The position numbers and the translations under genes are program-made. A stretch of 60,805 bases of DNA, filler included, from Globobulimina sp. (Eukaryota), in the NCBI GenBank assembly GCA_003354225.1. It is 8 parts of 8 records of this genome, joined end to end, with 100 filler letters (N's around TTAATTAATTAA, not from the genome) between each part and the next. Parts side by side here need not be neighbours in the genome. Positions count along the whole stretch, not along the records: positions 53,316 to 60,805 come from PIVH01000151.1; 7 more parts are not named here. One strand, given 5' to 3'. The notes below the pieces were generated by a model. That model searched no databases. It was given only the letters and a program-made list of their open reading frames with translations, and was not told the origin of the DNA. Shown here piece after piece: positions 7,528-60,805 of this stretch (its first letter is position 1; every line of letters starts with the position of its first letter).

Positions 7528-7627
7528 NNNNNNNNNNNNNNNNNNNNNNNNNNNNNNNNNNNNNNNNNNNNTTAATTAATTAANNNNNNNNNNNNNNNNN
7601 NNNNNNNNNNNNNNNNNNNNNNNNNNN
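7528..7627. other. Artificial contig-join spacer
   Basis: 44 N + TTAATTAATTAA + 44 N; the identical block recurs 7 times at about 7.6-kb spacing, and contig lengths decrease from 7527 to 7490. Confidence 0.98.
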
Positions 7628-15150: not shown

Positions 15151-15250
15151 NNNNNNNNNNNNNNNNNNNNNNNNNNNNNNNNNNNNNNNNNNNNTTAATT
15201 AATTAANNNNNNNNNNNNNNNNNNNNNNNNNNNNNNNNNNNNNNNNNNNN
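15151..15250. other. Artificial contig-join spacer
   Basis: N44-TTAATTAATTAA-N44. Confidence 0.98.
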
Positions 15251-22773: not shown

Positions 22774-22873
22774 NNNNNNNNNNNNNNNNNNNNNNNNNNN
22801 NNNNNNNNNNNNNNNNNTTAATTAATTAANNNNNNNNNNNNNNNNNNNNNNNNNNNNNNNNNNNNNNNNNNNN
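22774..22873. other. Artificial contig-join spacer
   Basis: N44-TTAATTAATTAA-N44. Confidence 0.98.
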
Positions 22874-30394: not shown

Positions 30395-30494
30395 NNNNNN
30401 NNNNNNNNNNNNNNNNNNNNNNNNNNNNNNNNNNNNNNTTAATTAATTAANNNNNNNNNNNNNNNNNNNNNNNNNNNNNNNNNNNNNNNNNNNN
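30395..30494. other. Artificial contig-join spacer
   Basis: N44-TTAATTAATTAA-N44. Confidence 0.98.
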
Positions 30495-33400: not shown

Positions 33401-33524
33401 AGATATTATTATACAGTATTGATATATGTTTGAAATCTTTAGATTTTTCATCATTTTGAACATCATCATCTTTTGTTTCATTATCTTTACTATGTTGATC
33501 ATCATCATCATCTTGGCGTTCCAT
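30495..33524 (-). CDS. LINE ORF2: apurinic endonuclease + reverse transcriptase (frame open from 33623), 3' partial
   Basis: APE motifs ILYNN, VET, GDFNGH, LDL and ADH; RT motifs NYRTL, QHGFR, DICKAYDRV, GLRQGC.MSP, FADD and YLG. Confidence 0.95.
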
Positions 33525-33613
33525 TTTTGTTACATAAGGTGTAGAATAATTAATATTATTAATATTATTTACTAAGTTATTATTAATGTATGTTTGGGAT
33601 TTGCCGTCCCTTT

Positions 33614-36600: not shown

Positions 36601-37951
36601 ATTGAAGTCCTGATTGTTCAATAAAGGAATGTCTATCTTTAGCGATACCTTTATTGTTATCACTGACAAACGTATCCTTTAATAAATTTTCATTTTGAGC
36701 AGAGAATTTATAGGTTCTGTTACTCGAAACAGTAATATTTTTATTTTCTGTTAATGTTACTGCTTCATCAATTAATTTTTTGTATTCATCTTCTCTTGGA
36801 GATAAATTAGATGGAACCATAGTTAATCTATCGTCTTCTTGTTGACCTAGTCCCATAGGCGTTGTGCCTTGATTAGGGATTTCGGTCGAAGTACTAATAT
36901 TACTATTATTCAAATTGTCGTTTGGGTCCTGCATATTACCTGAAACAAAAACATTATTAGATGCAGAATTATTCATAGCTAAATCTAATTCATCACATTT
37001 AATCATATCTTTCACACGATCAGCTTCTTGTAAATTTTTCACAATTACTGACGTCGTTCGTTTTTTATTTAGTGATGAATGAGTATTTTCGTACTTTTTA
37101 TACATATTACGAACTTTTTGTTCAGATTTACTATAATATACGGTACTCAATTTCTTATTTCTATGTGGAGTATTACTCATAATAAAATAATAATAAAAAA
37201 ATTTAATAAAATTTAATTTACTTACTAATTTTGATTTCTTAATATTTGGAAATCTTCTTTTACTTGATATTCTTTTATTAAAGCCAGATTCGGAAAACAA
37301 AAAATAAGGCACGATGATTTCACCCGTATTCAATAAATCACCCGTATAATCGCTTTGTTTTCTTCGAGAATGACGAGAAACACGAAAACTTTTTTTGAAG
37401 TGGTGTGTACCGTATCGTCGCTCAGCGTTCGGGTTACTGTATAAATATTTGGTTTTTGGTTTAATGTCAACGTTTTTACTAAGGACGTTACTAACACGAG
37501 CTCCAATTGGTGCACCATTTTCATACAAACAGTGCCCATTTGATTTCGTCGTCGTTTTTGTCCTAATATTCTTTGATAAATATCTCAAAAATTTTGAAAT
37601 TTTTCCCATTTTTTTTTGATTTAAAGTACTTAAATTACTATATTTAACATCTTTGTCATAGGAATTAATAAAATTCTTGATATTCGTAGTGGGAGCTATT
37701 TTTTTGTGTCCCTCCTTACTTTTTTCATGTTGTATTTTGAGCTCCGAAGGAATACATTTTGATGGCTCAGTGCGAACTATTTCTGAGTTTTCATGTAAAC
37801 TGCGCCCATCTGTTCCAGTATTATTAATCGATATATTAATTGAAATATTTTTAGCCTTTAAATTACTAGGTATTTTAATGATTATACTTTCATCCATGTC
37901 TGAAGGTAAGCTATTTGAGATTTTTTCACTTATAGCTTTTGGCCCAACCAA
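33614..37951 (-). CDS. LINE ORF1 (1445 aa or more): coiled coil, NADAR-like domain (about 35420-35965), Ser-rich linker, SGNH-like domain (about 33650-34370)
   Basis: NADAR-like DPFSWGY..TYTCFDHYLKVQMA..ELGIG..GNLIGNVI; SGNH-like IFMIGDS..YGIHLTKNGKKVLA. Confidence 0.85.
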   Translation of the reverse strand: MVGPKAISEKISNSLPSDMDESIIIKIPSNLKAKNISINISINNTGTDGRSLHENSEIVRTEPSKCIPSELKIQHEKSKEGHKKIAPTTNIKNFINSYDKDVKYSNLSTLNQKKMGKISKFLRYLSKNIRTKTTTKSNGHCLYENGAPIGARVSNVLSKNVDIKPKTKYLYSNPNAERRYGTHHFKKSFRVSRHSRRKQSDYTGDLLNTGEIIVPYFLFSESGFNKRISSKRRFPNIKKSKLVSKLNFIKFFYYYFIMSNTPHRNKKLSTVYYSKSEQKVRNMYKKYENTHSSLNKKRTTSVIVKNLQEADRVKDMIKCDELDLAMNNSASNNVFVSGNMQDPNDNLNNSNISTSTEIPNQGTTPMGLGQQEDDRLTMVPSNLSPREDEYKKLIDEAVTLTENKNITVSSNRTYKFSAQNENLLKDTFVSDNNKGIAKDRHSFIEQSGLQLSELILNTHATRENMSQMLQEHSEIMKLILESENNVPKGTEIYNALMTIHKMFYEISIKLTATCHSSMQSLVNLTKFASVNSVFITNNLRMASKAQAHNISTKENLKKHLQDSSDHECKIDDSRVTNLQNQLRIISNELLGYKSLLDEEIQKGVNRDLGISNNTNDDYERRINELEILVKNLSIQYPTATSTTEERSEDNVLIQEKPLRLHNEFLVGGTKNDPFSWGYESLTEGVFPFESKIDEDDTLPWDYEGSVTYTCFDHYLKVQMAITCKDWDLVWKLTQRMTYEIYTSLLEDLPIKNYQDYSEEINAAYKSTKFNDWLRIRIEYDQKFATLLGKIGHYEDVTFLFLSTNKELGIGYNARNKNIFIDKLEGENYEGNLIGNVIGNFCSQFISKYTESPKIVRQGIDKEFEELRQLWTIKHLDNEKEIKTQLELNICNCTSKQPLAKGNFDKLRETRFYHFDMRNNPKFNITNLPWIKQKLADANKKVKEKLAKLKSKEDKLTAAQSFDDTSTIHISDYGWSAVTDSSRDINMKDLEQGISTISSGKRPRTSSAKSSRSASVISMASESGISAKSISPDFPSSYDASSSKPRPSRRRTPKLTSNDEYDPTYGEQRSRSNSVKSAASSTHSTISKKSKQEKLIEERKTKLEEDREAIRAIMTTIIYQKKYIPANNLEANVLKPYTDHDLGNEKDGWAPECLRIYGSEGERGTISGLALNELKERIFESFQSSINIQKLRFPYLKIFMIGDSTSVGLEDPITEVFSETFLRRLPIYGGVKSIGKGAVSLRLRQTHTIVETLIKGDEKVIVLKYVMDYSDIIHGWKSDMTNDNITPKQIKERSIKYADKILHTAFEICHDISKKNPNCAILLNFTQPIQGGGQSEYLRNIDDPGHMNLSLEIERYMAQKVHSYAVENVLPIRYIQLTYAIMQAARQLQKVKTMSSSEDILKVFLYGIHLTKNGKKVLAVEIVREALLTWTFGISNKSLQLDPKEN

Positions 37952-38011: not shown

Positions 38012-38111
38012 NNNNNNNNNNNNNNNNNNNNNNNNNNNNNNNNNNNNNNNNNNNNTTAATTAATTAANNNNNNNNNNNNNNNNNNNNNNNNNNNNNNNNN
38101 NNNNNNNNNNN
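38012..38111. other. Artificial contig-join spacer
   Basis: N44-TTAATTAATTAA-N44. Confidence 0.98.
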
Positions 38112-45624: not shown

Positions 45625-45724
45625 NNNNNNNNNNNNNNNNNNNNNNNNNNNNNNNNNNNNNNNNNNNNTTAATTAATTAANNNNNNNNNNNNNNNNNNNN
45701 NNNNNNNNNNNNNNNNNNNNNNNN
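45625..45724. other. Artificial contig-join spacer
   Basis: N44-TTAATTAATTAA-N44. Confidence 0.98.
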
Positions 45725-45746: not shown

Positions 45747-48700
45747 ATGATATATCTGGAGCGTCAAATTAATAAATCTGAAGTGCTGCCTTTTAGACAA
45801 GACCAAATGTTACACAAACCAGAAAACGTAAAAACCTACAGTAATATTAGAGGAGTAAATACGGTAGAAATCAATACTTTGGTCCGTGTATACCTTCAAA
45901 AATTAAAAGGCAAAATAGAAAGTTCTGGAAAGAAAGGAGAATTTTGGGCTGACGACGGACACAAACAGCACGAAAAAAGGAAAAATCCACAAAAATTGCA
46001 AAGAAAACAGGAATCAAAAGAGCGAATAGGAAGAAGCGAAGCAGTAAGTATATTAATTTTTTTAAATTCCAAATTTATATGTTGTCAAAATCATCAATAT
46101 ATGCGTGTATGTAAGATGAGTAAATCTGAGACGAAAAATAAATTAGGCAATAATAGAAATGATAGATATTCAAGTAGATCAAGTAGTAGAAAAGGATATT
46201 CGTCCGTACGAAAAACGACGGTAAAAACTAAGTCAAAATTAATATTAAAATTTGAAAATGCCGAAAAAGTCAAGACGGAAAACGGTACTCTATCCGTTTC
46301 CAGTCAAGACTCAAAAGCTAACATAGGTTATATAAAAACGATGAGAAAATCATTAAAAAGGCAACGATATGCAGATAATAAAACTATTAAAAATGTAGTA
46401 GAAAATTTATTAGACAACGTTGAGGATAAGTTAAATTCTTCCGAAGGAGATGTAGGGAATAACGTAGAACTTATAGAAGAAATAATAAATATAACTCCAA
46501 TAGGAGCGCGTCCGTATCAAAGTACACCGAATACAATCTCAAGTATATTAATAGGTAGTCGTACAGTAGATCATAATTCGTTAGGTATTAGAGACCTTAT
46601 ACCGAATACGGTATGGACACCGTATATAGTAGATTATAATGCAGATAAATCAAATCAGAATATAAACTGTACGCCGAATACGGTAAGTACATCGAATATG
46701 GTAGATTATAATGTAGATACATTAAATCAGAATATAAATGTTACGACGAATATGATAGACAATATAAACCGTACGTCAAAAATAGTATGTACACCGAATA
46801 AGGTACGTACGCTGAATACGGTAGATGATAATAATCTAAGTCAAATTGACGTGACGGTAGATAATATGTCATATGTATTAAATAATATTAGTGATACATC
46901 ACATATATATGACGATATATTAGAATTGCCATGCACACCAGATAATACTATTATACAGATTGAAGCAGATACACCAAGAAAAGGACCACAGAGACAAATA
47001 AGAATGTATCATTTAGTAATTAATAAATTAGCGGCAATAGAAATTGAATTGAAGTTGAAGCCAGAAACAGAAATAGACAAAGTTACAGATCAAATCATTA
47101 GAGACACACTAATAGAAATAGATGCAATATATAGAAATGTAGAATTATTTGATATAGAAAATAGTATAATACTGTGTAAACAAATAAATAATAAACTAAA
47201 TAAGTTAGACGACATAATATACGGTATATTAGAGAAAATAGGAGTTAAAACTAAAAATCATATATGTGATGAATTAGGTAACATGAATCTTTCATTTTGT
47301 GAACTTAAAAATTTAAATATTTCAGGTATGGATAAGGAGAAAGATCCAAATTTGGAGACAACAACATCAAGCGGTACGGCAGCTGTCGGAGACCCAGAAC
47401 TTACTGAGGCGACCAATAGCATGTCGACCGCGGCAATTACTACAGAATCACAGAAAAATGTAGATAAAAATGTAGAAAATTTAACCACAGACAATACTAC
47501 AGAATCAGAAATGACAGATGAAACGGCGACAGAAGACACAAATAATTTTGATAAATCTGCGTCAATTAGAGCTATACCAGAAAATCCACATATGTACCCA
47601 GACTTTCTGGAGAGATACGTATATCCAACGAGCTTAACAGAATTCTTAGATGATATAAATACAGGTAAAGATTATATTTATGAAACTGATGAGGGAAAGA
47701 AATATAGAATGAAAAATAACACCCCTCCTATAGATATATTAGATATGTCAGTTAAAGATAAAGAATTGAATGATCTTAGAGCCCACTTTATAACCCAAGT
47801 AGCTTGGCTAATGGGATATGAAAGTGAAGAAGGTAGAATTCATATCAATAATAATACTGCAATCATAAGGAAAATTAGAACTTTTATTGATGAATGCTGT
47901 GAGAAATCTACATTACCAGTACAGGGGACTCACATGGCAGCCATCTTAAAAACAATAGAAGACCATCAAATATTATCCATGAGCAAATCTATGGACACAG
48001 ACGAAACTTTGTTGAAAACTATCAAAGAATTAACACAAATGATATTAAGAAATAATGAATCAGTTTTTACAATAAATAAAGCAATTAGAACTACGATATC
48101 AAATCAGAAAAAAGTTGAAAATAATATTAAGGCTGTGTCAACTTCAGTAAGTGTAGAACATAGTGAACAGAAAAAGAAAAACGACGTATTTACGTTAAAT
48201 TTCACAAAAATGTCTAAACAACTTGAACAATTAAATTTAGACAATATCAAATACAAGAAAGAAAATGTGGAATTAAAAGCGGAAGTAGAAAAAAATAAAT
48301 CGGAATTGGGTAAGATAAAGGTGCTGATCGGTCAGTTAAGCGGAACCTCCATCCAGCAACAACGACCTGTATCTGCACCAACAACACCCTCGGTACATAC
48401 AAAGAATATTGAAGATTTAAAAATTGAAATAGAAAAAAATAGAACTGAAATGGGTAATATAAGGATGATGATCGGTCAGTTAAGTGGAGTCCAACAACAA
48501 CGACCTGAACCCACACCTATAATACCTCCTGTTGAAGAAATGCCACAATTAAGAGACAAAAAAGATATTTTAATTGGAGGATGTAAAGGATGTCCTTTCA
48601 ACTTCGATTATTTAACAGAAATTAGAATTGTAACTAAAATGACAGAAGATGCTAAAGATGAATTTGTATCATATCATAGCTTTAACCACTATATTATGAT

Positions 48701-51011
48701 GCAAATGGCTATTGCTTGTTTAGACAAACAATTAATTAGACGATTAGCAGTTATAAAAAATAAATTATATTTCGAATATATACTGCAAAGATGTCCTATA
48801 GAAAAATATCAAGAAAATAAAGACCAATTTACAGCCCAATGGATAGCTGAACATTATAAACAATTCATATTATGTATAATGAGGAGAAATTTAGCCATGA
48901 GTGCTTTATGTGGTAAAATTGGCGCTGAAGAACTAACCCCAAAATTTTTAATCTCTGATAAAAATTTGGGTATTGGTTATGACGCTAATACAGAAAATAT
49001 ATATTTAAATCAATTAGAAATAAATTCAGCTGGCTCAAATTTACTAGGCAAAATTGTACATGATTTATGTGCAGATTCAAAAGATAATTATTTAAAATTA
49101 GACAAAAATAATAAAGATCAAACAGATATAGAATTTAAGCAATATTGTGAATATTGGAGTATTATGGATACTAAAGATAATGAAATAATAAGTAATGCTA
49201 GATTAGCAGCAATCAGAAATAATATATGGATTAAAAGCGTTACGTTAGTAGGCGATTACGACAATATAAGAAAAGAAAGATTATCGTTCGCAGATAAACA
49301 ATTTGAACCAAATATGAAATTAATAGAAGCTCCTTGGATAACAAAAATATCAAGATCGGAATTGAAAGAAGTCCAAAAAGGGGTTAGAAAGAAATATAGA
49401 GAAAATTCAAATGAATATAAAAAAGAATTAGAAATACAATTGCAACTGTTACGAAAAGAAAAAATCGAACATGATGCAATTAAATTATCAGAATCAGATA
49501 CAAGTAGTACGGATTTATTTAATCCAATGTCAGTAATATTAGGTAAAAGTTCTGCAACAGATTTAGATCCTGATATAGAAATATTAGATAAAGTAGATGA
49601 TGATAATTCAGGACAAAATTTAGATTTAGATAGAAATGTTCTAAGTGCAGCTTCATCTGCAAGTTATGATGGAGAGGATGTATTTAGAAAACCAGAGCCA
49701 TGGGAATTTCAGAGAAAATCACGAGGTCTAAGAAGAGGTGGGAGATATCCTAGAGGAAACGATAGGATCTCGCCTCCTTTTCGACCACCTCCACAAGATC
49801 AAGATGATAGAAGATCAACATCACGAGATAGATATGATTCAGAAAAACCTGCTTATTCCTTTGTAAATAGAGGTGGACATCAAGTACAATGGTCTGCAGC
49901 AAAAATTTTTGGTTTATCCAAACGAAAGACATATGGATCACAAGATAGTATAACCTCAGATGAACATAAATTTCAGAAAATTATGAGTGCAACAGAAAAA
50001 TTAGATATAGCTAAAGGCAGATGCAGAAAAATTCCATATAAAAGAGAGTTCAATGAAGACTTTCAATATCATAACAAAACATTCTTAGATATAACAGCAT
50101 TTTATATAGATAAAGATGTACACGGTGATAAATGCAAAAATATAGACGGAGCAGATATAAAAGGGATACCTATAATCCCTTTACCATTAGAAATTATGGC
50201 AGATAGAAAAGGTATTAATAAATTTGGACCTAGATATGATACAAGAATAACATATAAAATGCCAGGTAATTTGCAATTATCAATAATAGGAGATTCAACA
50301 ACATATGGATTAGAATATGTTCTAGATCTTACAGCAAAAGAATCTGAAGTAAAACCCAATGTACATTATTTAGGCATGAAATCATCAGGAAGTGCCTTAT
50401 TAAGTTGTAGAGTCAGACAAATGGCACCCGTTATCCCTGCATTAACAATGGGAGACGAGGATGTCATTGTGATAAAAGGCATATTAGATTTAGCAGATAT
50501 TGTACATACATATTATGGTGCAGGTAAAGTCCAAGATTCTTGGAAACCTTTTGTAGATGAAATGGCAGCAGATATATCTAGAATTACACACAATATACAT
50601 GGTATACATAACAATGTATTAATGCTGATTAATTTTACAACACCAATATTATCAAATAAAAATTATATGACAGATAATAATGATCCTGGATTTTTGATAT
50701 TAATCCAGGAAATAGAAAATTATTTAGCAGATAGAGTAAATGAATTATCAAGACAATTTAAAATTCCAGTTAGATATATTATGCTTGCTTCAGCAATTAT
50801 AGAACAAACCTATAAATTAAAAAAAGAAGCTGAAAAGGAAGCACAAGAACTAATTTCAATAGAAGATTCCTTAGGTAAATTTGTATCAGGTATTAAATTG
50901 ACAAGAAATGGAAACAAGATTTTGGCCAATGAAATATTTAGAGAAATGGTCACTGGTTGGACCTCTTTTGTTGATGCGAAGATTTTATCCGGAAAGAAGT
51001 CGGAAAACTAG
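45747..51011 (+). CDS. LINE ORF1 (1754 aa): repeats, coiled coil, NADAR-like domain (about 48560-49080), SGNH-like domain (about 50270-50960)
   Basis: NADAR-like CPFNFDY..SYHSFNHYIMMQMA..DKNLGIG..GSNLLGKIVHDL; SGNH-like SIIGDST..SGIKLTRNGNKILANEI. Confidence 0.85.
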   Translation: MIYLERQINKSEVLPFRQDQMLHKPENVKTYSNIRGVNTVEINTLVRVYLQKLKGKIESSGKKGEFWADDGHKQHEKRKNPQKLQRKQESKERIGRSEAVSILIFLNSKFICCQNHQYMRVCKMSKSETKNKLGNNRNDRYSSRSSSRKGYSSVRKTTVKTKSKLILKFENAEKVKTENGTLSVSSQDSKANIGYIKTMRKSLKRQRYADNKTIKNVVENLLDNVEDKLNSSEGDVGNNVELIEEIINITPIGARPYQSTPNTISSILIGSRTVDHNSLGIRDLIPNTVWTPYIVDYNADKSNQNINCTPNTVSTSNMVDYNVDTLNQNINVTTNMIDNINRTSKIVCTPNKVRTLNTVDDNNLSQIDVTVDNMSYVLNNISDTSHIYDDILELPCTPDNTIIQIEADTPRKGPQRQIRMYHLVINKLAAIEIELKLKPETEIDKVTDQIIRDTLIEIDAIYRNVELFDIENSIILCKQINNKLNKLDDIIYGILEKIGVKTKNHICDELGNMNLSFCELKNLNISGMDKEKDPNLETTTSSGTAAVGDPELTEATNSMSTAAITTESQKNVDKNVENLTTDNTTESEMTDETATEDTNNFDKSASIRAIPENPHMYPDFLERYVYPTSLTEFLDDINTGKDYIYETDEGKKYRMKNNTPPIDILDMSVKDKELNDLRAHFITQVAWLMGYESEEGRIHINNNTAIIRKIRTFIDECCEKSTLPVQGTHMAAILKTIEDHQILSMSKSMDTDETLLKTIKELTQMILRNNESVFTINKAIRTTISNQKKVENNIKAVSTSVSVEHSEQKKKNDVFTLNFTKMSKQLEQLNLDNIKYKKENVELKAEVEKNKSELGKIKVLIGQLSGTSIQQQRPVSAPTTPSVHTKNIEDLKIEIEKNRTEMGNIRMMIGQLSGVQQQRPEPTPIIPPVEEMPQLRDKKDILIGGCKGCPFNFDYLTEIRIVTKMTEDAKDEFVSYHSFNHYIMMQMAIACLDKQLIRRLAVIKNKLYFEYILQRCPIEKYQENKDQFTAQWIAEHYKQFILCIMRRNLAMSALCGKIGAEELTPKFLISDKNLGIGYDANTENIYLNQLEINSAGSNLLGKIVHDLCADSKDNYLKLDKNNKDQTDIEFKQYCEYWSIMDTKDNEIISNARLAAIRNNIWIKSVTLVGDYDNIRKERLSFADKQFEPNMKLIEAPWITKISRSELKEVQKGVRKKYRENSNEYKKELEIQLQLLRKEKIEHDAIKLSESDTSSTDLFNPMSVILGKSSATDLDPDIEILDKVDDDNSGQNLDLDRNVLSAASSASYDGEDVFRKPEPWEFQRKSRGLRRGGRYPRGNDRISPPFRPPPQDQDDRRSTSRDRYDSEKPAYSFVNRGGHQVQWSAAKIFGLSKRKTYGSQDSITSDEHKFQKIMSATEKLDIAKGRCRKIPYKREFNEDFQYHNKTFLDITAFYIDKDVHGDKCKNIDGADIKGIPIIPLPLEIMADRKGINKFGPRYDTRITYKMPGNLQLSIIGDSTTYGLEYVLDLTAKESEVKPNVHYLGMKSSGSALLSCRVRQMAPVIPALTMGDEDVIVIKGILDLADIVHTYYGAGKVQDSWKPFVDEMAADISRITHNIHGIHNNVLMLINFTTPILSNKNYMTDNNDPGFLILIQEIENYLADRVNELSRQFKIPVRYIMLASAIIEQTYKLKKEAEKEAQELISIEDSLGKFVSGIKLTRNGNKILANEIFREMVTGWTSFVDAKILSGKKSEN
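46527..46860 (+). repeat. Degenerate coding repeats (about 72-75 bp unit) in ORF1
   Basis: ccgaata starts at 46527, 46602, 46674 and 46794; PNTV..VDYN..NQNIN peptide units. Confidence 0.75.
48260..48540 (+). repeat. About 144-bp internal duplication in ORF1 coiled coil
   Basis: EKNKSELGKIKVLIGQLSG..QQQRP vs EKNRTEMGNIRMMIGQLSG.QQQRP. Confidence 0.8.
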
Positions 51012-53215
51012 ATAAGGTCAGTACAATAACTAGTTTTCACAATAATCGAAACATTAATAATACTCATATTTCAGATGCTCAGAATATAAACAAACCACAA
51101 AGATGGTTCAAAGAAAAAAGATCCAAAGATAAGAAATTATATTTGGATCAAAATATTGATATATTATATAATAATGTATTATCTATGAATTCTAAAATAG
51201 ATATTATAAATGAACATTTAAAAGAAATAAATATAGATATTATATGTTGTGTTGAAACAAGATACAAAAACATACTAGACACACATAAAATACAGGGATA
51301 TGATAGTTTCCACAAAATGCAACCTGATTGCAAAACAGGAGGTATTAGTGTATGGGCAAAAGTAGATTCTAAATCTACTAGATTAGATATCGATGATATA
51401 GACGACGAAATTGCGACAAATTATTTATGGATATTATGTCAAAATAGAAATATGACTGCTATATGTACTGTATATTTAAGAAACCAAGGAGATAAAAAGG
51501 CTATGGATACAAATACTAAAATATGTCAAAGACTAGCACAGCATATTAACTGGTGCAAAATTAGGAATTATAATATTATAATAATAGGTGATTTCAATGG
51601 ACATATCGGAAACGATGATTTAGGAATTAGTAATAATCATGAAGCAATAAATAGTAATGGCCATATTGTACGTAATTTTATTAAAAATACAAATATGATA
51701 TTGGCAAATAACGATAAAGAAACCTCAGGTACATGGACTTGGGGATATCGTAGAAAGAACACTAAACCTCAAATACTAGACTTAATATTAAGGAGCGAAA
51801 AAGTCATAAATTTCGACACTATTATAGACGAAGAAAATATTAGATATGGAAATGGAAATAAAGACCATTGTTTTATATATGGAAAATTTAGAGTAAAATT
51901 TAAACCTCTAGATGAAACCATTAAAAGTAAAAAACAAAGATGGAATATTAAAGATGACACAGATTGGATCCCTTTTAAAGAGAATATTAAAATAAACTTA
52001 GAAAATAGACAAAAACTAAACGATATTGATGAGACTGAAATAATAGATATTATAGGAAAATCGGGAGAAGATACAATAGGATATAAAAGTGATAAAATAA
52101 AAAAACCTAGAGAATCAAAACAAATCCAACAAATTTCTCTGGAGATTAGAAATATTAGAAAGAAATTACGCCATAAATTAGAATTTAAAGGGAATTTAAT
52201 TAATGAATTATTTATGAAAATAAGAGAAAAAAAACAAATAATAATGAGGGCAGAAATGGCTAGAATAGAAAAAGCACATGATAAATGGATTAAAAACCCT
52301 AAAAGAAAATTTCATCAATTATACGATACTATGAAAACTCTAAAACGAGGAGTAGTAGAAAAAGTTACATTGATAGATGAAGATAAGAATCCAATTATAG
52401 GTGAAGAGAAGATTAAAACTCATATAGCAGAATTTTGGACTGATATATTTACTCTAGGTATATGGCCTGAGGCCAATGATAATATGAAAAGATTAGGACT
52501 CAGTAATATTATCAATGGTGCAGATAAATTAGATTTAGAAAATGAAATAACAACTAAAGAATTAAAAGAAGCAATCAATAAATTAAAAAATAATACATCA
52601 TCCGGTTCAACGAATTTACCACCAGAATTTCTCAAAAATTGGCCAATAGAAATGATAGAAACAGTAAAAGTATTATTTAATAAATGGTATGATACAAGCT
52701 ATTTTCCAGATATAGGTAAAACCCAAGAAGTGACATTATTACACAAAAAAGGTTCAAAAAGTAAAATTAAAAATTACAGAACCCTAAGTTTAGGATGTAA
52801 TCTCTGTAAATTATATTTACATATATTAACGAAGAGATTGGAGTCAATTACAGAAAAGAAAAATATATTAGGATATATCCAACATGGATTTAGAGCAAAT
52901 AAGAGAATTGAAGATTGTATATTGGTTATTCAACATACAATACAAAGAGCTAGAAAATTAAGAGCATCAGAATCTCCAACTATAGCATTATTAGATATAT
53001 GTAAAGCATATGATAGAGTTTGGAGAGAAGGATTATGGAAAAAATTAAGAGAATATGGCTTTCCAGATAAATTAGTAGATGCAATCAAGAGTAGCTACCA
53101 AAATCCAGGAGCTACTATAACATTCCAAGGTATAAAAACTGACAGACTAAAAATGCCAGTAGGATTAAGACAAGGTTGTACAATGTCTCCAACCTTATGG
53201 GCATTATATATATCA
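51002..53215 (+). CDS. LINE ORF2 (APE + RT), no ATG upstream of the endonuclease, 3' partial
   Basis: Frame open from 50975; ILYNN, VETR, GDFNGH, KDH, DICKAYDRV and GLRQGCTMSP. Confidence 0.92.
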
Positions 53216-53315
53216 NNNNNNNNNNNNNNNNNNNNNNNNNNNNNNNNNNNNNNNNNNNNTTAATTAATTAANNNNNNNNNNNNNNNNNNNNNNNNNNNNN
53301 NNNNNNNNNNNNNNN
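53216..53315. other. Artificial contig-join spacer
   Basis: N44-TTAATTAATTAA-N44. Confidence 0.98.
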
Positions 53316-53427
53316 AGCCAATTGGTCAACCAGTCAATGGTCACTCAACACCAATTGGTCCATCTCAAAGGGCGATAGCCAGTCATTTCCTGTTCAGAGT
53401 GACCAGCGACTGGTTGACCAATTGGCT
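53316..53427. repeat. 31-bp inverted repeat (29/31 match) with 50-nt loop
   Basis: 53316-53346 agccaattggtcaaccagtcaatggtcactc vs the reverse complement of 53397-53427. Confidence 0.85.
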
Positions 53428-53504
53428 TGCACGTTTCGATTGCCCTCGGGCTATTGATTGTGGGTATATAAAATCATGTTTTCTATAATATATTGATTAT
53501 CGAG

Positions 53505-53948
53505 ATGACTTCGATGGAAACGTTTACTAGCTGTGTCAATAATATAGTTCTAAATTTGTACAGCGATTGTGACGATATTTTATCGCACCTGGAGATACTA
53601 CAAACTGTAAATAATAAAGGTAGTACTTGTAAATAGTCATAAATAATTTTCATTTTACTTATTTTAGAAAATTCATTGTTTGTACAATTGGAATCAAAAT
53701 TAAATTTTATTAAAGAAATTGAAACAATCAGAATCGCTATAAGAAAACTGAAAAATGATTTGGCCTTGGATTATGTTGTAATTTATTATGAAATCGAAGG
53801 CCGATATGAATTAATTTTGAGCAGGACAGATAATGACAGATACTTGATGGAAAGCAATCATCAATACTTGGATGATAAGATTATGGTTACAAATTTAGAT
53901 GATTTAGAAAAGCTATTTAATGACCTTGAACAATATATTTCATGTTAA
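53505..53948 (+). CDS. Two-exon hypothetical protein (131 aa) of the Polinton-like element
   Basis: TATATAAAA at 53465 and ATG at 53505. A stop-containing GT..TTTTAG intron at 53620-53667 joins in frame to ORF 53676. Confidence 0.6.
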
Positions 53949-53949
53949 T

Positions 53950-54393
53950 CTAATTATATAACCAATTACAAACAACCTCAGAAAATTTTTGATCGCTGTT
54001 TCGATGAGACAATAAAATTATTTTGAATTCATTTTGCCAACTGCTGTCATGATTCAAACGAGTAAACGGATCAAAATCTCTAAAAAAATCGATAACCAAT
54101 TTGAAATCTATATTTTTTTCTTCGATTTTCAATACGAACTCATCCATCACTCGGCGTCGAGGAACTGCTTCTACAATTTCTGGTAAATAATGATTCAAAA
54201 TTTCGTTGAGAGGAGTTGACAAGCAAAGGTCATGGTCGCGCTGCGATAATCTGTTGTAGATGCAACCCGGACAGTTTTGTCGAACCACAGATATTATAGA
54301 AATTTTGCTTTCTACAGATGCAAAGAATAGATCTTTAACAGTTAGTTCCATTGGTTCGTTCTCACTGAGAGCAGCGCTAGCAGCCATTGTCAT
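53950..54393 (-). CDS. Small hypothetical protein with CxxC..HxxC Zn-binding-like motif
   Basis: CPGCIYNRLSQRDHDLC; TATATATA about 42 nt upstream (54435-54442). Confidence 0.7.
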   Translation of the reverse strand: MTMAASAALSENEPMELTVKDLFFASVESKISIISVVRQNCPGCIYNRLSQRDHDLCLSTPLNEILNHYLPEIVEAVPRRRVMDEFVLKIEEKNIDFKLVIDFFRDFDPFTRLNHDSSWQNEFKIILLSHRNSDQKFSEVVCNWLYN

Positions 54394-54470
54394 AGATACA
54401 GAGACAATAATTGAATACCATCACAGGAAGCAACTATATATACATGTTCATACCCTATGGCTAAGTTTTT

Positions 54471-55244
54471 CTAAGTTCGCATATTTATAATATCTTTTTC
54501 ACGAAAATATATACTCGATCTGGCAAAAGTATGATCATAATCGCTCATCATTACACATTCTTGTAAATATGTGTTATCAATTGCTAATTGCTTTGGCAAA
54601 ACTTCTCTGCACAAAGAAGTTAATGTAGGAAAAGATACGCTTGGCTGGAAATGATATTCTTTCATTTGACCCGTTATCATTATGTGCATATAAGTATTCT
54701 TTCTCAAATATCCATGTACTGAATTATGTATTTTGGTTTGTAACCTATATATGGCAGGGATGGGACTATCATCACACTCTTGCACAAAATAAAGACTTAA
54801 ATTATTATCTTTAACGCCATAACCTATAGAGAAACGGATATTCGAATTGATAGTTATTGGAGTGAAGCAGTTATTTAGCAGCCAGTTCGCTACTATACCT
54901 CCATACTGCTCATTGACAATTAGTCGAGAATTAGCATCGTTTTCATCGGATACCAATCGAAAAGTTTGTAAAAATGGCTTGCTATCGCATATGATAGGCT
55001 GGTGGATAAATGCTTCTCTCAAGGGTAAAATTTTATATGGGAATTTTTTTACATTTGTAATGCCAATATCTAAATCTCCACAATAATTTGTTTCAAAGGT
55101 ATACAACTGTCCAGGCAATATTATTTCTTTTGAATTTATCACAGCCCAAGTATTAGAAAGTAGATTCGTAGGGCAAAATGTTGTATCACCATTTTCTTTT
55201 TTTACTATAGAAACATAACGAGGAATGCCCGGAACAAAATCCAT
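54471..55244 (-). CDS. Beta-rich protein with C-terminal BC/SOCS-box-like motif (paralog A)
   Basis: VSFPTLTSLCREVLP; paralogous to 55346-56338. Confidence 0.7.
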   Translation of the reverse strand: MDFVPGIPRYVSIVKKENGDTTFCPTNLLSNTWAVINSKEIILPGQLYTFETNYCGDLDIGITNVKKFPYKILPLREAFIHQPIICDSKPFLQTFRLVSDENDANSRLIVNEQYGGIVANWLLNNCFTPITINSNIRFSIGYGVKDNNLSLYFVQECDDSPIPAIYRLQTKIHNSVHGYLRKNTYMHIMITGQMKEYHFQPSVSFPTLTSLCREVLPKQLAIDNTYLQECVMMSDYDHTFARSSIYFREKDIINMRT

Positions 55245-55280
55245 GGAGAAATAAAAATTGCAACCCCCAGGGGCTTTTGC

Positions 55281-55290
55281 TATATATATA
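55281..55290. promoter_or_regulatory. Palindromic TATA element between divergent paralogs
   Basis: TATATATATA between ATGs at 55244(-) and 55346(+). Confidence 0.6.
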
Positions 55291-55345
55291 ATAACCAAGC
55301 AGCGCGCGCACCAAGCAGATGCTGCAATGGCGTTAAAGTGACAAG

Positions 55346-56338
55346 ATGGAGTTTATATGTACAAATCCTCAGGCTGTCTGTATCACTAAGGACAATGAGG
55401 GTACGACCAAATTTATACCTATCCCAAGACCTCAGAATTGTTTTGGAAGGTTTTGTCAAATAAAAGCAACGACGCCAATGGTCGAAGGAGTGCTGTATCA
55501 TTTTCGTACAAAAAATATAAGTTTAAACTTATCTATTACTAATGAAGTAGGGGAAATGAAAAGGTGTAGGTCATCATATTGTGATCGAGACATGGTAGCG
55601 AAGTACTGGATTCCAACCACAAAATTTACACTTTCATTTCGAGTACTTTTATGTCCCTATCATAAAAGACCTATTATTGTATCTAATACTAGGTATGGCA
55701 AAATGCGTGTAATGGATTCTTGTCGTACACATGTATACGATATTCCAATTAATAGAGATGTGGAAAATAGATATGCTGTAGGTTATTGCATTGATGATCA
55801 CAATTTGTATTATTATTTTATTTTGGAAAACAATATAGAAAATACAGTTGTGTATAGAATAAATGTAGGACTGAACCGATATATGGTTGATGTATTGAAA
55901 AATGACCCTCCTCAAATATATCTATTTATGGGATTTTTTGAACAACGTGAATCTATAGAAATGCTGGCTATTGAAGTACCCTTCCCTTCTTTGACTAGTT
56001 TGGCACTGAAATCGGTACCAGAAAAACTTAAAGAGTGTTTGAAGGAAACGGTTTTTCGTAGCATATTAAAAACTGGGATGGATTGCGCTTTTTCTAAATC
56101 TAACTATTACATACCAGAAAAAGATATTAAATATAGATTTAGAGGAAAGACAAGAACTGAAGGATTTTATAACTTATGTTATTACTGTCATCAAGAAGAA
56201 CACGCCTTTACAGACGAAGAGGGTGACAATGAATTTATTCCCAGCAAGTTAAAATCTACACTTCGGAACAGACGTATGAAACGTTGGCACCCCGATCGTC
56301 CTAGGGCATTTAATTCTCACTACGGTCCTGTTTACTGA
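55346..56338 (+). CDS. Beta-rich protein with BC/SOCS-box-like motif (paralog B)
   Basis: VPFPSLTSLALKSVP; shares blocks with paralog A. Confidence 0.7.
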   Translation: MEFICTNPQAVCITKDNEGTTKFIPIPRPQNCFGRFCQIKATTPMVEGVLYHFRTKNISLNLSITNEVGEMKRCRSSYCDRDMVAKYWIPTTKFTLSFRVLLCPYHKRPIIVSNTRYGKMRVMDSCRTHVYDIPINRDVENRYAVGYCIDDHNLYYYFILENNIENTVVYRINVGLNRYMVDVLKNDPPQIYLFMGFFEQRESIEMLAIEVPFPSLTSLALKSVPEKLKECLKETVFRSILKTGMDCAFSKSNYYIPEKDIKYRFRGKTRTEGFYNLCYYCHQEEHAFTDEEGDNEFIPSKLKSTLRNRRMKRWHPDRPRAFNSHYGPVY

Positions 56339-56842
56339 TTACATTATTGTACATTTTTTCTCATAATTAAAAGTTTGTCGTTGTATTTCATCAAACGAGC
56401 CATTTGACTGAATCCACTCCATCAGTTTCGTATTAATACATACACAAACGGAATCTACAATAATTCCAATTAACTGGGGCATACATTCATAAACGCAATG
56501 AAGTGAAACATATCCGGCCACCGAGAATAATACAACAATTCGCCCCCACGTTATTTTCTCTTCAATTAATGAATCCACAAATCCAAACAAATTTAAACGC
56601 ACAGTGTTATCTGTAAAATCGAGTGTTTTTACAAATTCATCCAATTCTTTTGTATGAGCTAATTCGAAATCATAAGCAAGTTTACGAAATCTTAAATGGG
56701 TTGGTGTGATTGGACCAATTTGTTGATATCCTTCCCATTCGTATTCAATAAGACTCAACCGCCACTTGACATAATCAGTAACCAATGACACCCCCTCATC
56801 TATGTAGCCATCTAACTCATCATCACTTTTAGTACCTTCCAT
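56339..56842 (-). CDS. Bcl-2 family protein with C-terminal CaaX motif
   Basis: BH4 LVTDYVKWRL, BH3 LRFRKLAYDFE, BH1 ITWGRIVVLFSVAG and BH2 EWIQSNGSF; ends KKCTIM-stop. Likely ATG at 56842. Confidence 0.88.
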   Translation of the reverse strand: MEGTKSDDELDGYIDEGVSLVTDYVKWRLSLIEYEWEGYQQIGPITPTHLRFRKLAYDFELAHTKELDEFVKTLDFTDNTVRLNLFGFVDSLIEEKITWGRIVVLFSVAGYVSLHCVYECMPQLIGIIVDSVCVCINTKLMEWIQSNGSFDEIQRQTFNYEKKCTIM

Positions 56843-56889
56843 GGCGACTAATTTGTCATGTAATGGCAAAATGTAGTGGGAGATGATGG

Positions 56890-56897
56890 TATATATA
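56890..56897. promoter_or_regulatory. Palindromic TATA element between divergent Bcl-2 and integrase genes
   Basis: TATATATA roughly midway between ATGs at 56842(-) and 56937(+). Confidence 0.55.
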
Positions 56898-56936
56898 GCT
56901 GAATTGAAGCAACATGACATAAGTGAAACTGTCAAA

Positions 56937-57932
56937 ATGTTGAATCAAGAAAAAATAGAATTACTTAAAAAATCCTATTACAACGATAAATATGGCTTTA
57001 CTACCCCAGAGAAGCTCTGGTTCATAGTCAGAAAATTAAACGAAAATATCAGTTTGTCGGATGTGAAAAAATACCTAAGCACAATACCTGCATATGCCCG
57101 ACACAAACTCATCCCTCGGCCGCGAACCTCTATTTGGAATAGATGGATTCGGTGCTCCTTTCCTGGCGAACTGGTAGCTATAGATATATGGTTTCTTGGT
57201 ACTGGAACTAAATCGCAGTTTGCTCATGCACTAGTTGCTGTGGATTGCTTGAGTAAATTTGCTGCAGTTGCAGCTGTTCAGAAAATTACTGCAAAAAATA
57301 CTGCAAATGCCATGACTAAAATTATCGACAATTTTAAATTTAAAATCCACAAAACTTTCTCAGATAGAGGCTCAGAATTTATAGGACAAGCGTTTCGTTC
57401 CGCGATGCAAAGTAGAGGTATTGAAATGGTTTTCACGAGTGGATCGAATCCATCAAAAACAGGCTTGGCGGAATCGCTCATTCGTACCCTACGTCTGATA
57501 CAGGGGCGGGTTATTACATCAGGACAATACAAGACAGGCTGGGACGCTGTAAAAAAAGCTTTGGAAATATATAACAATTCTCCACACAGCAATCTTGATA
57601 ACAGAACTCCCAACAGTGTAACCATGGATAATGCTGGCCAGATTTTAAAAAAAGTGATCGAAAAACGGAGAGATTTTATGGGAAAAAATTCAAAAATGTT
57701 GTTAGATAAGCCAAAATTTCAAAAAGGTGACGCTGTTCGAAAACTCATTATAGAAAAATCTGGAGCATTTGACAAAATTAATTTACCGCGCTGGTCCGAC
57801 GAAATCTATCGAGTATATAAGGTCATAAATGAGATACCTAGGCCTAAATATTACCTTGCCAATCCTTTGAACGGAGCTGTCCTACCTGGTACGTATACCG
57901 AAAAAGCTCTGCAACTACGACATAATGTCTGA
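56937..57932 (+). CDS. Polinton-type retroviral-like DDE integrase
   Basis: VAIDIW, VDCLSKF, SDRGSEF, AESLIRTL, YNNSPHS, KFQKGDAVR and RWSDEIY; no chromodomain tail. Confidence 0.93.
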   Translation: MLNQEKIELLKKSYYNDKYGFTTPEKLWFIVRKLNENISLSDVKKYLSTIPAYARHKLIPRPRTSIWNRWIRCSFPGELVAIDIWFLGTGTKSQFAHALVAVDCLSKFAAVAAVQKITAKNTANAMTKIIDNFKFKIHKTFSDRGSEFIGQAFRSAMQSRGIEMVFTSGSNPSKTGLAESLIRTLRLIQGRVITSGQYKTGWDAVKKALEIYNNSPHSNLDNRTPNSVTMDNAGQILKKVIEKRRDFMGKNSKMLLDKPKFQKGDAVRKLIIEKSGAFDKINLPRWSDEIYRVYKVINEIPRPKYYLANPLNGAVLPGTYTEKALQLRHNV

Positions 57933-58812
57933 CATTATCAGCTTGTATATATCTGCAGCGAAGCTACCAGTGAGTGATGAAAAAAATCCTAAAAAAACCC
58001 AGTGGCTATATAGAGTACCTCAAAGTATATTGAATCGACTAAGCCAATACCCGAAATGGAATATAACTTGTGACTATGTTTCCTTGGCCTCAAATATATC
58101 TACAGTTGAAGAATGTACAATAGCCTTCTATAATGATCAGACTAAAACCAAATACATTTACGAATTTCCGTCCAGTGTCGACACCGATGTTGATGAAATA
58201 CAAAACAAAATCCAAACTGCTTGCGACTATCCACAAGTTTCTACATTAGCTGGCATTGTGTCACCAAGAGCACGAATTTGGCTATTTCAATTCAATGCCA
58301 ATGCTAACAAATTCGAATTTGGAAAAGCAACTGGAACGAATGCGAGAGTGCCAGTCCAAACTCTCCATAATAGACTTTATGTATTTTTTAGTAGCAAGCT
58401 GGCTTCGAAAATTGGCTTTTCTGAAGCCCAATCTACTGTGCAATATTCAGATATTCAGGAAAACAATATAGTTGCTGATGATTTTCCAGATTTTTTGAAA
58501 GATTTACAACGACTGTATTTAACCATAGATTGTTTGAAGTCTTCATATCTGAATACATCTCTTCACAATATTTTATGCGATTTTAATTATCCATTTTTCT
58601 TCAATAGCACAACTGTACGTGGAGACTATGGTTTTACAGATTGTGTGGAAATCGATCGATCAAAATATAATCACTGGGTTCCTATGAATGGAACGCTGCT
58701 ACCGATTTGGACTATTCAATTAATGAATGAAAATGGGCAAACTTTGACAGTATCTGACCGCCATACACTACACATGCGCCTTAGAATTCGTCCAGCCGGT
58801 ATCGAAGAATGA
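57925..58812 (+). CDS. Minor capsid (penton-like single jelly-roll) protein
   Basis: Position between integrase and MCP. C-terminal LYLTIDCL..WVPM..IQLMNENGQ..MRLRIRP pattern is typical of Polinton mCP. Confidence 0.75.
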   Translation: MSDIISLYISAAKLPVSDEKNPKKTQWLYRVPQSILNRLSQYPKWNITCDYVSLASNISTVEECTIAFYNDQTKTKYIYEFPSSVDTDVDEIQNKIQTACDYPQVSTLAGIVSPRARIWLFQFNANANKFEFGKATGTNARVPVQTLHNRLYVFFSSKLASKIGFSEAQSTVQYSDIQENNIVADDFPDFLKDLQRLYLTIDCLKSSYLNTSLHNILCDFNYPFFFNSTTVRGDYGFTDCVEIDRSKYNHWVPMNGTLLPIWTIQLMNENGQTLTVSDRHTLHMRLRIRPAGIEE

Positions 58813-58896
58813 AAAAAAGTATATAAAGAAAAAAGTGATCATTGTTTATATTGTATTACTAATGGAAGGTTGTATAATAAGAAAAATTATTTTCTC

Positions 58897-59208
58897 ATGG
58901 CAGGAATGTTAGGAAGTGTGTCGGAGCCTAATCGCCCTGATGTGATACAAAATATTTTGGGTCCAGCTTCTAAAGCCGAAACTGATGCTATTGACTTGGA
59001 GAAGGAAACTTTTATTTCAGAACAATTACAAGCAGAGCCGCCCAAACCGAATAAACGTACATGCTCTAAAAAGCGTACAAGAAAAACAAAAATGAAAACA
59101 AGAAGGAAAAGAAGTGTAGCTAAAAAAAAGACACGTCCTAGACGTAAAAAAGTTGTAAAACGCAAGCGTGTTGTTCGTAGACGCATAATTAAAAAAAGGA
59201 CTAGATAA
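58897..59208 (+). CDS. Small Arg/Lys-rich putative virion core (DNA-condensing) protein
   Basis: C-terminal half is almost entirely K/R. Its stop overlaps the MCP start (TAATG at 59206-59210). Confidence 0.65.
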   Translation: MAGMLGSVSEPNRPDVIQNILGPASKAETDAIDLEKETFISEQLQAEPPKPNKRTCSKKRTRKTKMKTRRKRSVAKKKTRPRRKKVVKRKRVVRRRIIKKRTR

Positions 59209-60557
59209 TGGCAGCTCAAGAATTTACTAATGCGGAAATTCAAATGTTCCGCGATTTGCCGATTAATAATGCGTTTCTAGATGAGAAAATGGATACCATT
59301 TTGCCCACTCACCACGATCTGAACACAGGATTGATAGAATTTCATTTACCTATAACGGATTATTTTATATTGAATAAAATTGGCTTAAAAACTACGATTG
59401 GTGTGAGGAAAGTTGATGCAGCTACTGGGGTGGAAAGTCGAATCAAACCCGATGGTACTGACAATGTAGCCCCATTACCTCTAATAGGACTTATGGCATT
59501 CAAGCAATGTGAACTTTCCATCAATGGGACTACAGTAGAAGGAGTTGGATCGAACTTTCCTTACAAAGCTTGGATTAAAACTATAGGCGGTCATGAACAA
59601 AATATCTTGGAAAACAATAAAAGCTTGAATTTCTTCTACCCAGATATACCCGATGAAATAATTGCTAGTAATCGTGGCCAAACACAGGCCTGGAAAAAAC
59701 GGAATTCTAAGACTATTGGTTCTGATCCAGTGCTATTCTCCTTGCTGCCTTTTGACATTCTGTCAGCTAATAAGCTTTTCCCACCCAGAATAGAAATAGT
59801 AATCCGTTTATATCACTCAAGAAACGAATATAGATTGCAAACTAAGCATACGGATACTACATTTCCATATATATTAAATGTATACAGCGCGGAACTGAAA
59901 ATTTGGCGATATATGCTAAATCCGGACAAATTACGGGATTTCTATCGATGTTACTCCATCGAACACCCTCTTACCTATACATACCCATCATTCGATGTAC
60001 TGGGTCCATATCCACTGCATCAACAATCAGCTATCTTTTCTCAGCGTATTAGATTTGATCGTCGACCCATTTCACTTTATGTATGGTTTGTAAACGCAGC
60101 AGCATCTGCCGGGTCATTTATCACCAACCCGCTGTTTTTCCAAAATTTAGAAACTATTTATTGCCAATGTGAATTTGGAGGTCAGCGCGAACCGATCGAA
60201 GGTTACAAAACGCGCTTTAATCCTCTTAAAAATGAAGGCAGATTGGACGTAACAGATTGCTATAATGCATTAAGAAGAAGCTTGGGAGCATACCAAAACA
60301 ACAAATCCACTTTTCTCGACCTTGAACATTTTGTTAATGGATATACATTATTTACATTCAAATTCAGTCCTATAGACTATTCTACCGAATATCGACCAAA
60401 CGAAATAGACACTAAATCGGATTTGTCTGTAACTTTCAATTTTGCCAAACCTATAGACACTCAAATGAACATGTTTTGTATGGTGAATGAATATAAAAGC
60501 TTGATAATTAGACCAAATAGCACTGCTTCTGTTGTAGTACCTGGTGATACACTATAA
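59208..60557 (+). CDS. Polinton major capsid protein (double jelly-roll)
   Basis: 449 aa; IEFHL, FKQCELSING, NFPYKAWI, KLFPPRIEI, NPLFFQ, GYTLFTF and FNFAKP. Confidence 0.88.
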   Translation: MAAQEFTNAEIQMFRDLPINNAFLDEKMDTILPTHHDLNTGLIEFHLPITDYFILNKIGLKTTIGVRKVDAATGVESRIKPDGTDNVAPLPLIGLMAFKQCELSINGTTVEGVGSNFPYKAWIKTIGGHEQNILENNKSLNFFYPDIPDEIIASNRGQTQAWKKRNSKTIGSDPVLFSLLPFDILSANKLFPPRIEIVIRLYHSRNEYRLQTKHTDTTFPYILNVYSAELKIWRYMLNPDKLRDFYRCYSIEHPLTYTYPSFDVLGPYPLHQQSAIFSQRIRFDRRPISLYVWFVNAAASAGSFITNPLFFQNLETIYCQCEFGGQREPIEGYKTRFNPLKNEGRLDVTDCYNALRRSLGAYQNNKSTFLDLEHFVNGYTLFTFKFSPIDYSTEYRPNEIDTKSDLSVTFNFAKPIDTQMNMFCMVNEYKSLIIRPNSTASVVVPGDTL

Positions 60558-60559
60558 TT

Positions 60560-60805
60560 ATGTTACGTTATTATCAACTCGTAGATTTGTGTTCCAGAAT
60601 AGATTCTGATATAAAACCCAATTTTCGTGGTGTATTTTCGTTGGATAATGTTCCAGATTCCTTATCTATGATTGACCCAAATAAACCCAATTTTCTAATT
60701 TTCAATACAGACCCAAGCACTAAACCTGGTAGTCATTGGGTTGGGGCATTCATTGATTTGCAATCTGATACTGTATTCATAGATTCGTATGATCAATCAC
60801 CTCAC
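60560..60805 (+). CDS. Adenain-like (adenovirus-type) cysteine protease, 5' part only (absent from ORF track)
   Basis: Manual translation MLRYYQ..FRGVFSLD..FNTDPSTKPGSHWVG..FIDSY, containing the catalytic His and Asp. Confidence 0.88.
   Translation, partial: MLRYYQLVDLCSRIDSDIKPNFRGVFSLDNVPDSLSMIDPNKPNFLIFNTDPSTKPGSHWVGAFIDLQSDTVFIDSYDQSPH

Follow-up and report, generated by a model that had tools for sequence, protein, structure and literature searches.

A Bcl-2 homolog ending in a candidate CaaX box among the virus-type genes of a probable adintovirus/Polinton-like element

The window analyzed here is a stretch of 60,805 bases from a Globobulimina sp. assembly in which eight unrelated contigs (7527, 7523, 7523, 7521, 7517, 7513, 7491, and 7490 bases, in descending order) are joined by seven N44-TTAATTAATTAA-N44 spacers, located at positions 7528–7627, 15151–15250, 22774–22873, 30395–30494, 38012–38111, 45625–45724, and 53216–53315. 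The gene that concerns us, a member of the Bcl-2 family, lies on the last of these contigs, a 7.5-kb segment at positions 53316–60805. Kinase, actin, kinesin, GH38, cathepsin, and LINE genes occur on the other seven; because these cellular genes are on separate contigs, they are unlinked to the Bcl-2 gene and give no direct information on its host, which the initial annotation had taken to be an animal. The other contigs also hold two very long ORFs without a Pfam match, one of 1427 amino acids in the region 30447–37897 (minus strand) and one of 1754 amino acids in the region 45747–53215 (plus strand). Both adjoin reverse-transcriptase ORFs (RVT_1, with an EEP endonuclease in one case), a combination that resembles large non-LTR retroelements whose first ORF is unusually long.

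The contig at 53316–60805 is a compact array in which all ORFs are intact and some stop codons abut. It begins (53316–53427) with a 31-nt inverted repeat whose arms, at 53316–53346 and 53397–53427, are 94% complementary and enclose a 50-nt loop; this structure could be the terminus of an element or an assembly fold-back, and around 53396–53454 several of the Logan contigs from run X1 depart from the contig sequence. At most one end of the contig could be terminal, and the contig carries neither a second terminus nor a junction with host DNA. Two short ORFs at 53505–53948 (plus strand) fall in frame once a 48-nt GT..AG interval at 53620–53667 is removed, a GTATATAAA box stands 41 nt upstream of the first ATG, and the pair may represent a spliced gene on the element with a very short intron. 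Next come two divergently arranged paralogs (BLASTP E 8e-15, 23% identity), a 257-amino-acid ORF at 54471–55244 (minus strand) and a 330-amino-acid accessory ORF at 55346–56338 (plus strand), the latter without a match in Pfam, the PDB, or the ESM Atlas and the pair as a whole lacking any database match. Both contain the motifs FP(T/S)LTSL(C/A)xxxxP and (I/V)GY..D.NL..YF, the first of which we take to resemble an Elongin-B/C (BC-box/SOCS-box) site and the second the core of a SPRY domain; the two proteins could serve the virus as adaptors to cullin ligases of the host.

The Bcl-2 gene occupies positions 56339–56842 on the minus strand and is intact from ATG to TAA, encoding 167 amino acids; the start methionine is the same in its closest homolog, P0002 (62–64% identity). 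Its TAA lies directly against the stop codon with which the convergent 330-amino-acid ORF ends at 56338. On its other side, 40–95 bp separate its start from that of a divergently transcribed integrase of the retroviral type (rve) at 56937–57932 (plus strand; alternative start 56883), which matches Pfam PF00665 with an E value of 5.4e-11 and the catalytic core of HIV-1 integrase with an E value of 2.3e-6, and which found only three short, weak matches (L003–L005) in IMG/VR. The gap between the two starts contains a TATA-like element, GTATATATA, at 56889–56897, which may act as a shared or bidirectional promoter. The pattern GTATATAWA has nine matches in the window against a shuffle mean of 3.97 (none of 100 shuffles reached nine), and four of the nine are in this contig, each about 40–70 nt upstream of an ORF start.

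Beyond the integrase, the plus strand encodes a 295-amino-acid ORF (57925–58812) with no Pfam match at E ≤ 10, a candidate penton by its position only in the Beta-adintovirus map, and a 103-amino-acid ORF (58897–59208), likewise without a Pfam match, whose translated C-terminal half is almost entirely lysine and arginine. The latter may be a core or DNA-condensing protein, judging by this composition; its location, flanked by the penton and hexon candidates, recalls core or pX-like proteins of the adenovirus type. A 449-amino-acid ORF at 59208–60557 (plus strand) occupies the Hexon position and is a candidate major capsid protein on the basis of ESM Atlas features. These link it at 0.97–0.98 to clusters with DJR-like_dom, Capsid_N, and Sputnik MCP families, in which Preplasmiviricota is the commonest phylum, at a recognition of 1960, which is under the 2300 mark and hence weak. 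No sequence homolog of this ORF was found by protein search at E ≤ 1e-5, among PDB sequences, or in IMG/VR (0 relatives), and its single-sequence AF2 model, with a pLDDT of 27.9, was too poor to use. The final ORF, at 60560–60805 (plus strand), is the N-terminal 82 amino acids of a putative adenain-like cysteine protease, cut by the contig end; its match to Peptidase_C5 (adenovirus endoprotease) has an E value of 0.0066 and 16.6 bits, below the cut-off of 21.3.

The order of genes along the contig is that of the published Beta-adintovirus row Bcl2-Integrase-Penton-Hexon-Adenain, as given in machine-read text of Supplementary Fig S2 of PMC8502044, in which column positions are approximate. The same figure places PolB beyond the protease. 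Pfam found no PolB among the ORFs of the contig, which ends inside the protease gene, and no ATPase is present on its 7.5 kb. An adintovirus/Polinton-like context for the Bcl-2 gene is probable but fragmentary. The initial annotation had called the gene Polinton-encoded, which overstates what can be read from a 7.5-kb fragment with an integrase, a weak adenain match, and candidate capsid genes, and without PolB, ATPase, or host junction.

That the encoded protein is a Bcl-2 homolog with several BH regions and no transmembrane helix, as had been read from the DNA at the outset, was borne out by each comparison. Residues 53–149 match the Pfam Bcl-2 family (PF00452) with an E value of 2.8e-16 and 60.3 bits against a cut-off of 31.4, and the top sequence match in the PDB is Bcl-xL (1.8e-12, residues 19–152), with Bcl-2 chains weaker. 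An AF2 model built from a 73-row alignment has seven helices, a mean pLDDT of 89, and a pTM of 0.83, with low confidence in the tail (residues 156–167; pLDDT about 58 in the last block). Foldseek aligned this model with human Bcl-2 and Bcl-xL at a probability of 1.00, with TM scores of 0.77 (query) and 0.86–0.90 (target), an rmsd of 1.9–2.4, and 25–28% identity.

Four BH motifs had originally been reported, and three of the regions were recovered. BH1 is present as T98-W99-G100-R101; BH2 is present as W143..N147-G148-S149-F150, with F150 replacing the terminal tryptophan of the signature; and a helix at residues 16–30 aligns with the BH4/alpha-1 helix of Bcl-xL. The BH3 signature L-x3-G-D, however, is absent. 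The aligned residues are F52..A56-Y57 (within the stretch L50..F59), alanine or cysteine followed by tyrosine stands at the G-D position throughout the clade of CaaX-bearing relatives described below, and the BH3 of this protein is positional only. The L-x3-G-D signature is not a requirement in pro-survival members of the family. Because the BH3 G-D is missing and a helix is present at the BH4 position, we favor an anti-apoptotic role for the protein over one like that of Bax. Within the same clade, a subgroup (P0008, P0025, P0152, and P0157) has lysine for the BH1 glycine (TWKR instead of TWGR); in Bcl-2 and Bcl-xL this glycine is regarded as critical to the binding of Bax, and the substitution may signify an altered groove function.

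After BH2 the protein continues for 17 hydrophilic residues, DEIQRQTFNYEKKCTIM, and stops. The highest 17-residue Kyte-Doolittle mean in its last 40 residues is 1.18 and falls in helix 7, as compared with about 1.8–2.7 in relatives that bear a transmembrane segment. Among 151 representative homologs, 141 have a recognizable BH2, and 56 of these have a KD18 of at least 1.8; the range is −0.89 to 0.19 for tails of at least 18 residues in the CaaX-bearing clade, with P0159 at 0.99. The last four codons and the TAA stop (56339–56353, minus strand) specify C164-T-I-M167, an end that fits the rule we applied for CaaX substrates: a cysteine four residues from the end, an aliphatic residue at a2, and M, S, Q, or A (farnesyltransferase) or L, I, or M (GGTase-I) at X. 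In the available text of PMC11152559, the CxIM series was fully modified in a yeast reporter, and CTII was fully prenylated, near-completely by GGTase-I; CTIM, CIII, and CNYM were not among the reporter sequences in the portion searched. Prenylation of Cys164 would thus be a well-founded expectation from its sequence.

The initial annotation would have been refuted had the CaaX box not been conserved in homologs, and it is conserved. An exhaustive HMMER search returned 225 homologs at E ≤ 0.001, and 10 of the 11 full-length members of the clade to which the protein belongs end in Cys-x-(I/Y)-(M/I). (P0152 and P0153 were added by a profile search and P0154–P0159 from 90% clusters; the count excludes P0153 and P0158, both of them truncated.) The ends are CTIM in P0001, P0002, P0154, P0155, P0156, and P0157, CTII in P0152, CIII in P0008 and P0025, and CNYM, a non-canonical CaaX box, in P0003. 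The remaining full-length member, P0159, diverges after GLEKC and has no CaaX box. Read one residue further upstream, P0002, P0154, P0155, and P0156 end in FCTIM, P0003 in ICNYM, P0008 and P0025 in CCIII, P0152 in CCTII, and P0157 in CCTIM; the double cysteine (CC-x-I-x) of the last four suggests anchoring by prenyl and palmitoyl groups together. The cysteine at exactly −4 is the sole invariant position in the ten boxes, and the stop codon always follows three residues after it, while the linker before the cysteine varies from 11 to 24 residues. The basic residues that had been counted as part of the farnesyltransferase pattern did not hold up, since the KK found here is not conserved and the residues before the cysteine elsewhere in the clade are NTF, NRF, NNC, SC, or SI.

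Chance is an unlikely source of the cysteine at −4, because outside the clade it occurs in only 4 of 146 representative homologs (3 of these 4 tails start with V, the intron signature discussed below), as against both of the nearest relatives, P0002 and P0003 (43% identity). We also computed a maximum-likelihood tree by a "quick" method from 73 rows and 136 core columns, leaving the tail columns out. The six CaaX rows included fall on one side of a branch with an SH-aLRT of 94, and none of 500 label shuffles gave a value as low as that observed for the CaaX grouping; the tree neighbors of these rows are P0004, P0007, P0039, P0047, and P0053, mostly of the intron-bearing type. A single origin of the CaaX clade is likely on this evidence rather than proven, because the tree is a "quick" one on few columns.

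The best-supported account of the C-terminus is, in our judgment, the CaaX reading, to which we assign a probability of roughly 60%, and we give the same weight to its fuller form, in which a pro-survival-type protein with the Bcl-2 fold is carried on an adintovirus/Polinton-like double-stranded DNA element and a prenyl group replaces the tail anchor. Under this account, host farnesyltransferase (or GGTase-I for ends in –I) would prenylate Cys164, and Rce1 and ICMT would then process the prenylated end at the endoplasmic reticulum. The lipid would take the place of the tail anchor and set the BH3-binding groove on the cytosolic faces of organelle membranes, where the protein could sequester BH3-only or Bax/Bak-like host proteins and delay the death of the infected cell.

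The distribution of the gene raises a different possibility. Run X1 (organism coded A) contains 0.90 of the sampled words and spans the contig in full, with a word depth of about 10–24; its matching pieces fall into identity bands of 14 (99% or more), 10 (95–99%), 10 (90–95%), and 9 (under 90%), which suggests several diverged copies or strains in the sample. In X2, a marine metagenome run from a single study, 264 nt of the Bcl-2 gene are present with 6 differences, and 234 nt of the 295-amino-acid ORF are present without any. The relatives themselves are on contigs of 602–1583 bp, and an alignment of the CaaX clade gave 29 pattern matches and 0 relatives in IMG/VR. Two of these contigs, L001 (1.6 kb) and L002 (1.1 kb), come from one WGS project and show no integrase or capsid gene beside the Bcl-2 relative, so the clade could be partly cellular. 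Directly downstream of P0003, L001 has an ORF (1240–1581, plus strand) whose product combines a single C2H2 finger (E 0.0021) with a long acidic tract, and there are three TATA-like boxes in the 118-bp gap before it.

It is accordingly conceivable, though in our view unlikely, that the CaaX-bearing Bcl-2 proteins are in essence a cellular, intronless family of one lineage of marine invertebrates and that the copy here was captured recently or lies in a decayed endogenous element. Besides the absence of viral hallmark genes from L001 and L002, this explanation can call on the protein's 25–28% identity to cellular Bcl-2 and Bcl-xL as against 17% or less to the viral Bcl-2 models in BFVD, which were much poorer matches (best E 1.3e-4); on the two paralogous lineages, P0003 and P0025, found in one WGS project; and on the 14/10/10/9 identity bands of X1, which are as expected of a multi-copy genomic family. 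It has more difficulty with the locus itself, where virus-type genes hem the gene in, the next ORF at a distance of 0 bp and the integrase start at 40–95 bp, in the very position of Bcl2 in the published Beta-adintovirus map (PMC8502044), on a contig whose ORFs are all intact; and L001 has a compact TATA-then-ATG layout like that of the window contig. Were the family cellular, the exchange of tails would be an innovation of the host instead of the virus.

A conserved C-terminus need not be conserved for prenylation. It could serve as a PDZ ligand (T/I-x-M/I at the end), as a cysteine for palmitoylation, redox chemistry, or metal binding, or as a degradation signal, in a protein that is soluble and cytosolic, as some poxviral Bcl-2 folds are. 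By the C-terminal motif rules for PDZ ligands, –TIM and –TII fit class I and –III fits class II; moreover, CNYM is a poor canonical CaaX box, and a second cysteine lies just upstream in several relatives (CC-x-I-x). A PDZ ligand, however, has no need of the cysteine that is invariant at exactly −4 in ten boxes, the residues at the next three positions differ only in ways that CaaX rules allow, and the stop stays three residues past it despite linkers of 11–24 residues. CxIM and CTII, furthermore, are efficient reporter substrates in the available text of PMC11152559. We judge these other uses improbable, and the CaaX reading remains the one we prefer.

Finally, the CTIM end would be misleading if the mRNA were spliced to a downstream exon encoding a transmembrane anchor. 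An intron at BH2 is conserved among cellular Bcl-2 genes, and in 55 of the 141 representatives the residue after BH2 is V, the signature of reading through the GT of that intron. At this position the present ORF has GAT GAA and no splice donor; after BH2 the CaaX clade continues as a conserved coding helix, D/E-E-L/I-x-R-Q, and the helix-8-like stretch is kept in the nearest relative (DEIQRQTFN versus DELLRQNFN). A scan that paired each of the 5 GT donors in the ORF's final 90 nt with all AG acceptors 25–3000 nt downstream, on the same strand and to the contig end, yielded no transmembrane-like tail among products of 18–60 residues, and the downstream exon that would have overturned the original reading was thus not found. 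Short introns may exist on this contig, as the 48-nt GT..AG interval at 53620–53667 indicates, but with the downstream DNA filled by the intact convergent 330-amino-acid ORF and with a CaaX end shared by 10 of the 11 relatives, a conservation for which intron read-through would not account, we consider such an annotation artefact very improbable. The argument from the nucleotide sequence is that the CTIM end is probably genuine.

The protein shares with cellular Bcl-2 and Bcl-xL the helical bundle, the WGR of BH1, the tryptophan of BH2, and the helix at the BH4 position. It differs from them in its short alpha1-alpha2 loop, in lacking both the BH3 G-D and the BH2 intron, and in ending with a 17-residue hydrophilic tail and CTIM where they have a C-terminal transmembrane anchor. 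Among proteins with unrelated folds, K-Ras4B (CVIM), lamin B (CAIM), and prelamin A (CSIM) also have Cys-x-Ile-Met at the exact end after a flexible linker (in part from PMC11152559); K-Ras4B has upstream lysines as well, whereas here there are only two, and they are not conserved in relatives.

Two elements of this picture are already known. Bcl2 and IAP homologs have been observed in adintoviruses (PMC8502044, section 3.2), which are midsize, integrase-bearing double-stranded DNA viruses of animals; in Adintoc5:Bcl2 (Starrett et al. 2021, PMC8502044) Bcl2 stands beside Integrase, followed by Penton, Hexon, and Adenain as here. The Bcl2 of a Branchiostoma lancelet adintovirus (BFVD, 197 amino acids) is a weak match to our model, with an E value of 0.3 and TM scores of 0.45/0.39. 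The other element is a viral Bcl-2 with a CaaX end. The Bcl-2 homolog A179L of ASFV, a large cytoplasmic DNA virus, ends in CNLI, and this box was modified by human farnesyltransferase and GGTase-I when it was placed on the yeast reporter (PMC11152559). The novelty of a lipid-anchored viral Bcl-2 is accordingly smaller than the initial annotation implied, both adintovirus Bcl2 genes and the CNLI of A179L having preceded it. A179L has 15% identity to the present protein and TM scores of 0.60/0.56, and we infer that the CaaX box of this clade arose independently of it. In full-text literature searches, no Bcl-2 subfamily with a conserved CaaX box as its defining feature came up, and in the available text of a 2024 review of viral Bcl-2 proteins (PMC11209288) the terms "prenyl," "adintovirus," and "polinton" do not occur.

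The broader proposition, that an adintovirus-like Bcl-2 clade of marine animals swapped its tail anchor for a prenyl anchor independently of ASFV A179L, is to our minds evenly balanced. If it is true, lipid anchoring would be a recurrent way for viruses to place an apoptosis inhibitor on host membranes, reversibly and in dependence on prenyltransferases, and no earlier Bcl-2 subfamily would have had a conserved CaaX box as its defining feature. Targeting by a C-terminal transmembrane helix is treated as near-universal among functional Bcl-2 proteins. A conserved, prenyl-anchored subfamily would make that anchor exchangeable; it would predict a localization and dynamics of a different kind, with processing at the endoplasmic reticulum, reversible membrane binding, and sensitivity to inhibitors of prenylation, and it would give weight to the CaaX box of A179L. 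In a larger context, the CaaX-bearing Bcl-2 adds a variant to the accessory genes of the adintovirus/Polinton group, which has been little studied.
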